Assembly (NCBI GenBank): GCA_951406725.2
Contig: OX597833.1
Span: 26,660,001-26,724,000, forward strand
Source: Octopus vulgaris
Taxonomy: Eukaryota
Direction: 5' to 3'
Length of the DNA stretch: 64,000 nucleotides
The position numbers and the translations under genes are program-made. Of the stretch, positions 6,203 through 63,120 are shown piece after piece. A model generated the notes under the pieces. It made no database searches. It had not been told where the DNA came from and saw only the letters and a program-made list of their open reading frames with translations. How positions within the stretch are numbered: position 1 is the stretch's first letter; the number at the start of each line of letters is the position of its first letter.

Positions 6203-7475
6203 TATTTTATGTATATTTACAGATATTAAGTGAGAAGGAATGTGTGCTTGCATGTGTGCGTGTAGATTTGTGTGTGTGTGTCTTTGTGCGTAATGAAATA
6301 GCATCTTGTTACCCTGTTTTGCGAGAAGAGTAATAAAAACAGCATTGTTATAAGTATTCACACTAAACTTATACTGAGTTTCGCCTCATATTTACAAAAC
6401 CATGCGTACACAAACGCACACGTACACACACAAGTGTTTATATATATATATATATATATACAGACAGACACCCTCATACGTACATGTGCATTTGTAAATG
6501 GGTGTGTCGATATAACTATGATTTTGTGTCAATTAATTAACATAGTCGTATCTGCATTGGTAGCTTCTTGTTACCTCATTGTTTTCTGATGAATGACAAA
6601 TATTCCGAAGCGTTTATTGCTTCTCATGTTCTTCGTTATTATCACGTGAATCTAATCTATCAACTTTGTACTTCCGCTATTTATTTGTGTTCTATTTATA
6701 ATATGTTGTTACAAACACACGCACTCACAAAAAAACAAAACAAACGCACGCACAAACACACTCATGTGTGTTCATATCTGCATATCAGGTAAGTTATTTT
6801 GATATGAATAGACCAAAACTAACAACGTTAGCAACAATCCTCACATGAAGATTAATCGCGCAAGAAAATATTTTTAAAGTAACCGTTTCACATTTGTTAT
6901 TTAGAAAATATAATGGATTGTAAAGTAATCATCCAAAAGTAAACACAATGACGTTCTTCGTTCTTAAAACATGTTCTAAACATGTGGTTAATACCGCGAA
7001 TGACTTTACAAATTATATGTTGTCACGAACTTTCAGGATATTCATTTAATATGGATGCTTTTTGTTTTATTTGAAAAACAACAATGTTAATAGTTACGTA
7101 TCAAGTGATTATTCTGTCGTTTTTGTAATTGTAGTTTCCACTTCTAGAATCATGTCTAGCGTTTATACATACAATCTAGTGTGTGTACATATACATGTTT
7201 ATACATATCCGAATGAACATATATATATATATATATATATATATATATATATATATATATATATATATATATATATATATGTGTATATAAACATACGCAC
7301 ATTACATATATATATATATATATATATATATATATATATATATATATATATTGTATAGAGGGCATTATTACACATAAATGCCTCACACTAAGAATGACAA
7401 AGTCATTACTACCAAAATTATACTAATCATACCTAAATGCAGTTCTTCAAAGCAAGACATTTAAAAAATGAATTT

Positions 7476-7532
7476 AGTTCTGTATCACCGTGATTTCACA
7501 TTTAACTTACGTCTATGATCATCAGCAGAACT
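7476..7532 (-). ncRNA. Minimal type I hammerhead ribozyme fold (inverted copy)
   Basis: Exact reverse complement of 7965-8021. Confidence 0.7.
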
Positions 7533-7964
7533 GATTCTGAACATATCATAAATAAACCACCAACCTTACCTAGAGAAGACGAACAGACATCTATTCACTC
7601 CGGCCAAGCACATGGAATGTTTATAAATCATATATCCGGTAAATGGCGGGCTTATTCGAACTGCATGTCGGATAAGAAAAGTATTTCGGAATAAATTTAA
7701 CAATTAAGGATAACTTCTTAATAAGGAATCTTAACAAGAAATTATCAGGTAGTTAGCGTGAAAAACCTCATAAAAGAAAAGAATTCGAAAATAATTTTTT
7801 TTCTTTTGAACAAATTAATTATATCTATATTGTATAGAGGGCATTATTACACATAAATGCCTCACATGATTTATAAACATTCCATGTGCTTGGCCGGAGT
7901 GAATAGATGTCTGTTCGTCTTCGCTAGGTAAGGTTGGTGGTTTATTTATGATGTGTTCAGAATC

Positions 7965-8021
7965 AGTTCTGCTGATGATCATAGACGTAAGTTAAATGTG
8001 AAATCACGGTGATACAGAACT
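7965..8021 (+). ncRNA. Minimal type I hammerhead ribozyme fold
   Basis: Stem I AGTTCTG/CAGAACT (7 bp); core CTGATGA 7972-7978; stem II CAT..GAC-GTAA-GTT..ATG with U-U at its base; GAAA 8000-8003; stem III ATCA-CGG-TGAT; predicted AUA cleavage after 8014. Confidence 0.7.
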
Positions 8022-8427
8022 AAATTCATTTTTTAAATGTCTTGCTTTGAAGAACTGCATTTAGGTATGATTAGTGTAATTTTGGTAGTAATGACTTTGT
8101 CCCTCTTAGAGTGAGGCATTTATGTGTAATAATGCCCTCTATACAATATAGATATAATTAATTTGTTCAAAAGAAAAAAATGATTTTCGAATTCTTTTCT
8201 TTTATGAGGTTTTTCATGCTAACTACCTGATAATTTCTTGTTAAGATTCCTTATTAAGAAGTTATCCTTAATTGTTAAATATATATATATATATACGTAC
8301 AGCGATTTATTTAGTTATTGTATATAATGTATGTATATGTATTACGTACATATATATGTGTGTGTGCATGCACACTCACACATATAATTACATTCATAAA
8401 CATTTAATATATTGTATATTTATAATG

Positions 8428-8538
8428 TAAATATATATATATATATATATATATATATATATATATATATATATATATATATATATATATATATATATAT
8501 ATATATATATATATATATACATATATATATATATATAT
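8428..8538. repeat. (TA)n microsatellite, representative of dozens of such tracts in the window
   Basis: Direct reading. Similar tracts at about 4700, 7220, 9250, 29870, 43240, 43660, 46850, 48130, 52440 and 58200. Confidence 0.98.
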
Positions 8539-58992: not shown

Positions 58993-59029
58993 CTTTCTGT
59001 GGAAGAGCATAGGCTCGAAACGTTAAAGA
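58993..59029 (+). ncRNA. Atypical minimal hammerhead-like motif, copy 3, in a PLE-like fragment (about 58930-59120)
   Basis: CTTT-CTGTGGAA-GAGC-ATAG-GCTC-GAAA-CG-TT-AAAG. Confidence 0.5.
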
Positions 59030-59224
59030 CTTTTTCACTTCCCGAGCGTTATACTAATACATCTGTTTGTTGTCTGCACCACCTGTCTACGTAGTTTTTT
59101 TTTGTGAATTCTCCTTATATATGTATATATATATGTGTGTATATATATATATATATATATATATATATATATATATATATATATATATATATATATATAT
59201 ATATATATATTATTATATAGAAGG

Positions 59225-59275
59225 AGCTTCTACAGGACTAGAACTGTTTCATTCAAGAGAAATCTTCAGGAAGTT
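59225..59275 (-). ncRNA. Type I hammerhead ribozyme fold (inverted copy)
   Basis: Reverse complement of 61955-62005 with one stem I mismatch. Confidence 0.7.
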
Positions 59276-61954
59276 AGTTAACAAGAATTGTATTGGCATT
59301 TATACATTTAGGCAGGTTTAAAGGGGTGGTGGTGGGGGACTTTTTTGGGGGTAGGCATAGCGCAAAATGTCATACTTGGAGTCAGTGGTAAATTAGATAA
59401 AAGAATAAATAAAAGAATTTTTAAAACAATATATAAAATAAAAAATAAAAAAATAAAATAATAAAAAAAATAAAAAAATAAAAAAATAAAAAAATATATA
59501 TAAAAATATATATAAAAAAAGAATAGAGTTTTAGGTAAATAAGGAGATTCTCACTTATACCTCTACACATATGTATACATATATACACACGCACACACAT
59601 ATATACATACACACATACACACACACACACACATGTACATATACATACACACACATACATACACATATCTACACATACACATATATATATATATATATCT
59701 ATATATATACATATATATATATATATATATACGTACACACACACACATGCATACACATATACACACATGTATGTATACACACACTACCACACATACATAT
59801 ACACACAGAAAAATATATATACATACACACACATACACATACACGCATACACACACATATATATATCCACATACACACATGCACACACAACACACAGGTC
59901 CCTATATACACATATATACACATACACACATATATACATATATATACATATATCTATATATACATATGTGTACCTATACATACCTACACATACACACATA
60001 TATACATACAAATACAGACCCATTCCCTAATTTTAATTTTATTATCTTCATTTATTACTTTTGTTATCTTTGACCGCTGGTCGCAAGCATCTTGGCTATG
60101 ACAGCAAGTCCATTAATCTTTCTACTTGAAAACAAGCACTCATTCACGCACGCACACTCATTTGCACGCACCCTCACTCATTCGTACACTCATACACATA
60201 CTCGCACGCGTTTTATTCATACATACATACATCTACATACATTCACGTATATACACATACGTACGCGTACCTACAGCTTCAAGTCTACATTCTTAGAAGG
60301 CTAGTCTATACATATACACCAATAAATATATATACACACATACATATACACCTACATACAAATACATACATATATATATATATACACACATATATATATA
60401 TATATATATATATATATACATATACATATATATATATATATATACATACATACACATACATACACATACACACATACACATACATACGTATACATACATA
60501 CATACATCCATACATCCGTACATACATACATATATACACATACACACACCCACACGTATACATATACATACATATATATACGCATGCATACACATACAAA
60601 TACATACACATACACACATATACATATACATACATATATATACACACACATACATAATACATACATACATATACAAATATACGCACACACATACATACAC
60701 ATATACACATTCACGCACATACACATTGACATGCGTACCCATACACACACACACACGCTCATCCATATATACACATAAGTACACACATGCGTAAAAGTAT
60801 ACATAAATCTATGCTTACACATACACACACACACACACGCGCCTCCTTATATTTATACTTACATGCAAACTCAAAAAATAAATAATAAAATATATATACG
60901 CGCAGTTATTCATACATGCATACTCAAAAAATAAATAATAAATATTAAGTATATGTACGTGCAGTTACCTATTATACAGACGGATACATACATATAAACT
61001 TACACACATATACATATATATACATATATACATATACATATATACATATACATATATATATATATATAAATATATACATATATATATATATATATATATA
61101 TATATACATACCTACACATATGTACCTATACATACACACATAGATAACTCTACGTACCTACATATACATAAACACACGAGCGTACACGTATATGTACATA
61201 TACAAATACACATACACACATATATATATACATACATACATATACATACACACATATATACACACACACACATACATATATATATATATGTGTGTATATA
61301 GGGACCTGTGTGTTGTGTGTGCATGTGTGTATGTGGATATATATATGTGTGTGTATGCGTGTATGTGTATGTGTGTGTATGTATATATATTTTTCTGTGT
61401 GTATATGTATGTGTGGTAGTGTGTGTATACATACATGTGTGTATATGTGTATGCATGTGTGTGTGTGTATGTATATATATATATATATGTATATATATAG
61501 ATATGTATATATATATATGTGTATGTGTAGATATGTGTATGTATGTGTATGTGTATATATATGTACATGTGTGTGTGTGTATGTATGTGTGTATGTATAT
61601 ATGTGTGTGTGCGTGTGTATATATGTATACATATGTGTATAGGTATAAGTGAGAATCTCCTTATTTACCTAAAACTCTATTCTTTTTTTTATATATATTT
61701 TTATATATATTTTTATATATATTTTTTTATTTTTTTATTTTTTATTTTTTTATTATTTTATTTTATTTTTTATTTTATATTTTTTTATTATTTTTTTATT
61801 CTTTTATTTATTCTTTTATCTAATTTACCACTGACTCCTTGACCACTCCCCCAAGTATGATATTTTGCGCTATGCCTACCCCCAAAAAAGTCCCCCACCA
61901 CCACCCCTTTAAACCTGCCTAAATGTATAAATGCCAATACAATTCTTGTTAACT

Positions 61955-62005
61955 AGCTTCCTGAAGATTTCTCTTGAATGAAACAGTTCTAGTCCTGTAG
62001 AAGCT
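61955..62005 (+). ncRNA. Type I hammerhead ribozyme fold
   Basis: Stem I AGCTTC/GAAGCT; CTGAAGA 61961-61967; stem II TTC-TCTT-GAA with U-U at its base; GAAA 61980-61983; stem III ACAG/CTGT; GUA site after 61999. Confidence 0.75.
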
Positions 62006-63120
62006 CCTTCTATATAATAAATTAATTTTACTCTGCTATGTATTGAGTACCTTATTTACTGTGGTTAACCCCGAATCAACCCGGGACCTACATATATATA
62101 TATATATATATATTTATATATATGAAAGGCGGTTCTCCGGCATGGCAGCAGTCACATGACTGAAACAAATAAAAGAGTATATATATATATATGTATATAT
62201 ATACATGCATGGAAGTGACTTTTTGCAATGCTTGTTCTTATGAATGTATATCAATCCATACATCTCACATTTCCCTGCTACGATTTCAATGTATACTTAC
62301 ATATCTATATGAATGTATCAGTGTATGCTATGTACTAATCATCCGTATTAATTTTAACCTATAAGAATATTTTATTTCTATTGAGAATCTCATAAATACC
62401 ACATTCATTAAAAATATCGTGCAGTGTTTTTATTTCCATAGATGCTTTTTCTACACAATTGCTTTCTTTCAACACAGAATCCTTTCATTTCTTTCTTTCA
62501 AAATATTTCCTGTAAGTACACTTTGAGAATCTCCGGTATAATTAACTGCGTTTTATGTCAAATGTGCTAAACGCTGCTATAAATGGACACATGTGTGCTA
62601 GTATAGCTTACAAATTCGCTACAAAATCCGTTGTTCTCGGTTCTGTTTCACTGCTTGATAACTTCACCTTTTTTTTTGGTCAACTGATACGTTGCGAGTC
62701 GGACTTTTGTAGAGTGAAAATCTTTATGTTGATCAGTGCACCTATATGTACATAGAGTTACACAGATTCACACACACACAACCACACACACCCACACACA
62801 CACATACAAACAAACACACAAGAACATACACACGTAAAATCACATTTATTCATATGCAGCTGTAAATTTTTATAGATATTAATATATACATATGTGCATT
62901 TGAGCAGATAGATAAACATATATAAATTACATAACTGCAGATATATCCTATAACACAAGTATTTATAGCAATATTTGAGGTTAAATGAGTTTATACGAGT
63001 ATTGAAACAAATTATTCAAATTATTGCACAATGGCACACGAAGTAAAAAAGAAATTAAATAGAAATAACATTTCAATGATTAAATGTTTAACCAATAAAG
63101 GGAAAATATATAAAAGCATT

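Follow-up and report, generated by a model that had tools for sequence, protein, structure and literature searches.

The stretch analysed here (the window) comprises 64,000 nucleotides of the Octopus vulgaris genome (assembly GCA_951406725.2, contig OX597833.1, positions 26,660,001 to 26,724,000 of the forward strand; all coordinates below count from its first letter). It is AT-rich, with a GC content of 0.28-0.39 across its length, and contains 71 (TA)n tracts of at least 12 nt. Scattered over it are hammerhead ribozyme (HHR) motifs, which we assign to five families of complete type I HHRs and one block-rearranged HHR, all located in short inserts likely copied via RNA by Penelope-like elements (PLEs); the rearranged one is likely a self-cleaving ribozyme of the Naiad type of PLE. 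We regard this overall reading as highly probable. The general layer consists of type I HHRs in PLE derivatives that target (TA)n; it adds one more, densely packed example to a kind already published, namely PLE ends and non-LTR (non-long terminal repeat) retrozymes. The new part would be the split, permuted HHR of a single insert, termed insert B, together with its apparent presence in Naiads. An initial annotation of the window missed this part because it had called the motif at 28637 decayed. The features of insert B are as follows.

28592-29548, plus strand: insert B, located between (TA)n tracts, made up of about 1.25 copies of a 763-bp non-coding unit and carrying the permuted HHR twice
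28609-28697, plus strand: split HHR copy 1, found with the full descriptor
28609-28615, 28618-28622, 28624-28630, 28634-28638, plus strand: 5' half of copy 1 (helix P0 5' strand, stem II 5' strand, clamp and stem III, respectively)
28640-28645, 28651-28655, 28656-28659, plus strand: middle of copy 1 (stem I 3' strand, stem II 3' strand and GAAA), with predicted cleavage after C28639
28670-28676, 28678-28683, 28684-28690, 28691-28697, plus strand: 3' half of copy 1 (clamp partner, stem I 5' strand, CUGAUGA and P0 3' strand)
29372-29460, plus strand: split HHR copy 2, with the layout of copy 1 shifted by 763 and predicted cleavage after C29402
29394-29396 and 29427-29432, plus strand: predicted kink-turn (k-turn) of copy 2, a 3x6 loop between clamp and stem III

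The two copies lie in a direct repeat (28592-28792 and 29355-29555, 99% identity), the ends of the insert are 8 and 1 bp away from TA tracts, and its longest ATG-initiated frame encodes 53 amino acids. A scan of all six block orders places the S, G and core blocks of insert B in the non-circular order S-G-C, anchored at 28684 and 29447, with stems I and III present and stem II two bases out of register. Any block order at all was matched in only one of 300 shuffled windows and in none of 5000 shuffled units. The register is restored by an upstream strand, 29381-29385, which forms 5 bp with the bases preceding GAAA and yields the canonical G10.1-C11.1 pair. Hereby, the core and the stem II strand upstream of it are 66 nt apart, so that block C, in which the stem II strand directly follows CUGANGA, is interrupted. 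Next to this strand a 7-bp helix with 29433-29439 takes the place of the type-SGC clamp (7-8 bp overall, imperfect in some variants), while P0, a 7-bp helix directly after A9, closes the domain. What lies at 28637 is thus an HHR with all its parts, arranged in the non-circular order S-G-C, built from five helices and broken open between A9 and G10.1. The full five-helix descriptor finds only the two copies of insert B in the window and nothing in 1000 shuffled windows. Given the S, G and core blocks, a suitable stem II strand plus clamp upstream of them occurs in none of about 200,000 flanks from the real window and in 6.5e-5 of random flanks. In a standard k-turn, two helices are separated by a bulge of 3 nt, after which come G.A and A.G pairs. 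The 3x6 loop that connects clamp and stem III agrees with this consensus, the bend itself being a prediction, as is cleavage after C28639 and C29402.

Two other assignments were tried for insert B and dropped: an earlier closing helix (29377-29382 with 29471-29477), given up for P0, and a C/D small nucleolar RNA, which scores 9.9 bits against a cut-off of 45. Outside the window, the pattern of insert B gave no match in prokaryote genomes, two matches lacking stem I in one scan of viral contigs and none in another, and ten matches in metagenomes, all with at most four of six stem I pairs and without similarity to the window.

The element also occurs in public sequencing runs of 14 studies. Contigs from four of the 24 listed runs were aligned to 29050-29548 (3677, 5991, 22 and 481 contigs, respectively), with variants listed at frequencies of at least 4%; the marine run X20, in which the element has a small share, was not among the four. 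Contig depth peaks at 29390-29457, and among the variants listed, drawn from thousands of contigs, none falls within 29395-29426 or 29438-29453. Loose contig ends, again among those listed, start at 29380, where the stem II strand begins (76, 56, 2 and 15 contigs). It was this combination of depth peak, invariant stretches and loose ends that pointed to the upstream strand 29381-29385. Of the 83 positions considered, 43 belong to the core and stems I-III, and all 12 variant places listed lie outside these 43 (p = 6e-5, a post hoc value). Within the k-turn, two loop bases vary and the G.A pairs do not.

Naiads are said to lack canonical HHRs, with some flagged as having a 'core' or 'half core' (Craig et al. 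2021, PMC8557442). File S5 of that study contains 54 Naiad consensus records, and in 24 of them we read by eye roughly the last 600 bases at the 3' end; record names were taken from the table order of the preceding record, from which the file departs in places. Eight of the 24 records (Obim, Ovul, Esco, 3_Chem, 2_Movir, Plae, Amil and Bfor) show the split order of insert B, each with helix letters of its own that differ from those of B; helices are weak in Bfor (stem I of 2 bp) and in Esco (four of five stem II pairs). In most of them a P0-like helix follows right after the core and an extra hairpin precedes stem II. Both Octopus records have the 3x6 k-turn spacing of insert B, and two cnidarian records share its 5-nt linker. 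A further five records (Hcon, Hpol, Parc, 3_Nbra and, left without a name assignment, the one preceding Naiad_Lpol) contain an intact type-CSG HHR with a long clamp. Five of the six records in this sample flagged as half cores could be resolved in this manner. A search of the supplement of Craig et al. with six short motifs gave no match relevant to insert B; no wider homology search outside the ribozyme was made.

These observations suggest that the split HHR of insert B is likely the ribozyme of Naiads described as lacking hammerheads. Going further, we consider it rather probable that Naiads carry HHRs as non-circular permutations, in the intact CSG form in nematodes and in the form opened by a fifth helix at A9/G10.1 in cnidarians, a ctenophore, an acanthocephalan and cephalopods, with insert B as a high-copy non-autonomous rider. 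They would then represent the first non-circularly permuted ribozymes in eukaryote genomes, would lie outside the six proposed block orders and would be active as monomers, and the octopod k-turn could allow protein control of cleavage. Two kinds of record stand apart from these: the 3' end of the record preceding Naiad-2_Movir contains twister-typical words, so that some Naiads may use another ribozyme class, and those preceding Naiad_Sglo and Naiad-2_Pfla (oyster and hemichordate) share a similar GC-rich 3' motif without HHR core, possibly a structured RNA.

Eckert et al. (2023, PMC10085705) obtained HHRs of type SGC and CSG from metatranscriptomes and metagenomes; their search, which took in RefSeq, yielded none in the genome of a known organism. 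They share with insert B the non-circular order, a short linker between stems I and II, a clamp joining these stems, and an intact core. Insert B differs from them in that block C, assumed in the same study to be impossible to interrupt, is opened at A9/G10.1 by a fifth helix, and in the predicted k-turn between clamp and stem III. The RNAMotif SGC patterns examined from that work require G or UG after CUGAUGA and would thus miss the form found here. With Naiad PLEs (PMC8557442), insert B has in common the insertion into (TA)n, the partial tandems and the layout of the eight 3' ends named above; unlike these elements it has no reading frame, and the likeness concerns its ribozyme part. In the literature searched, largely open-access papers and for the most part at the level of listings, we found no description of a split or permuted HHR in Naiads or retrotransposons, and no such variant was seen in Forgia 2023. 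A precedent for P0 may exist in Weinberg 2015, to which other work refers for HHRs that bear extra helices.

The remaining HHRs are of type I and are located, with related elements, as listed below.

7352-8284, both strands: insert A, a circularly permuted 478-bp unit, present about 1.07 times on the minus strand and, in the adjoining plus-strand part, 0.88 times
7476-7532, minus strand: type I HHR of the inverted copy of insert A (anchor 7525)
7965-8021, plus strand: type I HHR of the plus copy of insert A (anchor 7972), with U.U at 10.1/11.1 and a Hydra-like 4-bp stem III with 1-nt loop
15798-16963, both strands: fold-back G, arms 98% identical and including a SINE-like (short interspersed element-like) piece, with a half HHR at its centre (GAAA 16373-16370 on the minus strand)
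40046-40310, plus strand: insert C, 265 bp between TA tracts, carrying an HHR with C3U
40048-40094, plus strand: type I HHR of insert C (anchor 40055), C3U, palindromic stem III
43323-43652, plus strand: insert H, a fold-back with a half HHR (GAAA 43422-43425, palindromic stem III, UA)
43935-43972, minus strand: family D copy 1 (anchor 43967), A6U core, bulged A, 2-nt palindromic stem III
56538-56575, minus strand: family D copy 2 (anchor 56570), A6U and A9G
58993-59028, plus strand: family D copy 3 (anchor 58997), family D core
58298-58845, plus strand: insert E, a 404-bp unit present as 1.36 units between TA tracts, with a single type I HHR
58602-58674, plus strand: type I HHR of insert E (anchor 58607)
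59210-62020, both strands: fold-back F, arms of about 800 bp with type I HHRs
59225-59275, minus strand, and 61955-62005, plus strand: type I HHRs of fold-back F (anchors 59269 and 61961), U.U type, outward-facing

A scan of the window against Rfam gave no hammerhead at gathering level, only microsatellite noise and one tRNA-like match, and a rescan of two stretches at E<=10 likewise gave none. For this reason descriptors with shuffled controls were used instead; they were tuned after the sequence had been viewed. According to these scans the window contains nine type I motifs, which correspond to five families and seven insertions. The strict descriptor matches four times, or five times if C3U is allowed, against an average of 0.00-0.01 in 200 block-wise dinucleotide shuffles; it does not match the reversed or the complemented window. 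With at most one core departure the relaxed descriptor finds seven sites (none in 150 shuffles), and with at most two it finds eight (shuffle mean 0.03). Hence the HHRs proposed at 7476/7965, 40048, 58602 and 59225/61955 are complete type I motifs, far above the level of dinucleotide-shuffled DNA. Every match of the relaxed descriptor coincides with a site already named in the initial annotation, including the variants at 43935, 56538 and 58993, which form a single family with an A6U core. The half or decayed cores proposed there fared less uniformly: 16361 and 43422 are half cores (GAAA, stem III, UH), both at fold-back centres, 52061 matches none of the descriptors tried, and 28637 is the complete, permuted HHR described above.

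Families A, C, E and F contain CUGANGA (C with C3U), GAAA and UH along with the three stems I-III in type I order, a G10.1-C11.1 pair being present in C and E and U.U at 10.1/11.1 in A and F. Self-cleavage is their predicted function. Outside the cores, blastn between families gives only low-complexity or very short matches, C and E sharing 13 nt of core, and the HHR copies within A, C, E or F derive from single events. Outside their cores the families are unrelated by this measure, as had been proposed, whereas the idea of one common system does not stand, given that two of them have Hydra-type HHRs and one the permuted HHR of Naiad type.

In family D, position 6 is U in all three copies, where A is expected, while the bulge at 9.1, stem II and the palindromic minimal stem III are present. 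Within the motif the copies vary only at position 7, in loop II, at position 17 (A, U, C), by one A9G and at one outer stem I base, and no compensatory pair was found among the three. Reading the core as carrying a 3-nt insertion gave no descriptor match, and the A6U reading was taken instead. The minimal hammerheads described for PLEs by Cervera and de la Pena (2014, PMC4209133) have a palindromic 15.2/16.2, a G10.1-C11.1 pair and, ahead of stem II, a bulged base, all of which recur in family D; what sets the family apart is the U at position 6 in each copy. Among natural changes of this base, the literature covered contained A6C (Perreault 2011) and not A6U.

A link to PLE enzymes comes from an endonuclease relic, listed here with a possible, weaker second one.

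34475-34888, plus strand: GIY-YIG endonuclease relic, a broken C-terminal part, Hydra-clade-like
63460-63723, minus strand: possible second relic of the same endonuclease (tblastn E of 0.001-0.002 from three matches; profile E of 0.057)

The PLE GIY-YIG relic proposed at 34602 holds up: read with X at its stop, it has 106 homologues at E<=0.001, which reach GIY-YIG only below the cut-off. Two of the 105 homologues compared contain an RT (reverse transcriptase) motif together with the CxCX5C linker that defines the Hydra clade (Craig et al. 2021, PMC8557442). By eye the relic also fits the Hydra endonuclease alignment in the supplement of that study, with a C-terminal type CxxC..E..N, while a word-index protein search and a Pfam search found nothing. 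Downstream of the weak relic at 63460-63723 no HHR was seen. Hydra and Naiad PLEs, Octopus families included, insert into (TA)n, and among the 25 Hydra-clade families 14 have U.U at 10.1/11.1 (Craig et al. 2021 with file S2, PMC8557442). As A and F share this U.U and an Octopus Hydra family inserts into (TA)n, this layer is of a known kind. The likeness to Hydra-clade PLEs comprises (TA)n insertion, a type I HHR with U.U and short stem III (both Hydra-like in A when compared by eye with file S2) and the endonuclease motifs of the relic; A, F, G and H differ from such elements by lacking a coding frame, and the published HHR letters of Hydra-1_Obim are matched by none of these four.

The arrangement of the inserts, described beforehand as tandem or fold-back, is borne out by tandems of more than one unit in A, B and E and by fold-backs in A, F, G and H. 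Tandem junctions reveal full units in A, B and E (478, 763 and 404 bp), in which the longest ATG-initiated frames amount to 53-61 amino acids. In the fold-backs the HHR strands face outwards, the same orientation as in PLE copies inverted at the 5' end (Craig et al. 2021, PMC8557442). Both 3' ends of insert A lie within (TA)n, and its circular fold has a z value of -4.65 relative to 60 shuffles. The right arm of fold-back G begins 2 nt ahead of the predicted cleavage site. Its arms extend past the 3' end of the HHR element into flank and SINE-like piece, suggesting that neighbouring DNA was carried along. The centre of insert H (43395-43420) resembles what was once the stem II hairpin, with a 5-nt loop and an inner G.T, which would point to snap-back copying at this place. 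Of ten insert ends defined by alignment, seven have a TA tract of at least 12 nt no more than 10 bp away, compared with one of 40 ends of SINE-like pieces (p = 9e-6; the latter are BLAST ends, and four of these pieces belong to one cluster) and with 2.3% of background positions. The enrichment anticipated relative to SINEs is thus present; the fold-back at 16 kb and the 56538 copy lie away from such tracts. Insert 3' ends overlap the TA target by 1-7 nt. Taken together, the inserts show the PLE insertion signature, i.e. partial tandem or 5'-inverted copies with microsatellite bias. As a caveat to this bias, (TA)n is found at both ends of a mariner in the window as well.

Li et al. (2026, preprint 10.64898/2026.07.22.740005) describe retrozymes as non-autonomous derivatives of PLEs, and the non-LTR retrozymes (Cervera and de la Pena 2020, PMC7229834; Li et al. 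2026) resemble the present inserts as short, low-GC, non-coding units with type I HHR and a tie to PLEs. The inserts differ from them as dispersed copies, either of 1.1-1.4 units or inverted, in (TA)n rather than arrays, and B has no type I HHR. Li et al. recognise an active retrozyme by at least two consecutive units each with a type I HHR; in A the two HHRs are inverted to each other, E has one, and that of B is not of type I. A, B and E do consist of a short unit without protein frame, as retrozymes do. Among the inserts, non-autonomy as claimed initially is therefore established for these three units only, and the remaining inserts could represent 3' ends severed from autonomous PLEs.

That most inserts are in fact 5'-truncated ends of autonomous PLEs rather than non-autonomous families may well be the case, although we rate it at somewhat less than even. 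For C, D, F, G and H, where less than one unit is visible, this explanation is compatible with the reading preferred here, and PLE copies are mostly 5'-truncated and inverted (Craig et al. 2021, PMC8557442); in A, B and E it is contradicted by the full unit junctions and the lack of any frame above 61 amino acids. Unlikely in our view is a second alternative, in which the motif of insert B and the Naiads folds as described, no longer cleaves and serves as a binding site for a PLE enzyme or a k-turn protein. PLE HHRs are poor cleavers in vitro (PMC4209133), cleavage is dispensable for one PLE, and no tested precedent for the break at A9/G10.1 was found in the literature; all core nucleotides and the U-H site are kept in insert B and in the eight split Naiads, however, and a binding role would not need them. 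It is more doubtful still, and very improbable, that insert B is an ordinary intact type-SGC HHR with a downstream stem II strand, the upstream pairing being incidental. The S-G-C order does fit with a 2-nt slip of stem II, and each of the downstream registers (29454-29457 or 29459-29462) can pair over 4 bp, but they reach the core only with two to five extra bases, a divergent B subfamily alters the downstream positions and retains the upstream strand, and in the Naiad records the stem II strand is upstream. Finally, in a window rich in microsatellites the motifs might be artefacts of assembly or arise by chance. The missing Rfam hammerhead, the post hoc tuning of the descriptors and the artefact-prone nature of near-perfect palindromes might speak for this, but the reading is largely refuted and scarcely credible in view of near-zero shuffle rates, the presence of B in runs of 14 studies and HHR parts at fold-back centres.

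Several observations nevertheless weigh against a split, Naiad-type, self-cleaving HHR in insert B. Stems I-III are invariant and not covarying in the contigs. Among the clamp variants, T29437C (41-89%) greatly exceeds in frequency its partner change A29389G (10%, 2%, 41% and 12%), G29390T (10-45% in three runs) has no partner change among those listed, and the one compensatory change is only deduced from depths in one contig. We had predicted that a GG was lost after the core of insert B, and no such insertion occurs in the contigs. All runs are assembled contigs, and the RNA label of run X10 is a guess. The minimum-energy nested fold does not contain stem II, the method being unable to model pseudoknots. 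No Naiad coding relic (N-terminal endonuclease plus RT frame) was found in insert B, nor a motif relic in the window. The Naiad sample was chosen mostly by HHR flags and read by eye, and no HHR could be resolved in any of the remaining 11 of the 24 records, three of which are flagged as incomplete. Moreover, insertion of an Anolis PLE in vitro is reported not to depend on HHR cleavage, and read ends were absent from the site.

For the split HHR as we propose it, stems I, II and III of insert B would form the usual core as a double pseudoknot. Stems I and II would be joined by the clamp helix, which the predicted k-turn would fold back onto stem III, with P0 coming in at the A9/G10.1 bulge. A single copy could hereby suffice for cleavage, without the dimer needed by ordinary PLE HHRs. 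Read-through transcripts of a tandem would be cut at the HHR, and the RNA possibly circularised. A PLE RT/GIY-YIG enzyme acting in trans may then nick (TA)n and use the cut or circularised RNA as a template with a varying starting point, which would lead to permuted copies of more than one unit, while template switches near the cut end would give fold-backs. The likely drivers are Hydra-clade enzymes in the case of A, F, G and H, and those of Naiads in the case of B.

If this holds true, a stated exception, Naiads without hammerheads, would be removed, together with the argument built on it that HHRs are dispensable passengers. Non-circularly permuted ribozymes would move from viroid-like environmental RNAs into high-copy animal retroelements. 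Since the split topology is missed by current descriptors and by Rfam, genome-wide ribozyme counts would also be too low.

Some minor features of the window complete the picture. The mariner-like DNA transposon relic at 40450-41404 is flanked on both sides by (TA)n, and a partial second copy (96% identity) lies at 37761-38248. An imperfect palindrome of 200 bp (76%) at 46947-47147, resembling a miniature inverted-repeat transposable element and without HHR core, adjoins a TA tract, and a decayed palindrome of about 210 bp (70%) is present at 15036-15248. The tRNA-like Rfam match at 9497-9568 (36.5 bits) is perhaps the head of a SINE, and the commonest SINE-like family forms four pieces head-to-tail at 32052-32963. 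An identical stretch of about 35 nt occurs at 30293-30336 and 31722-31756, each time between two TA tracts.

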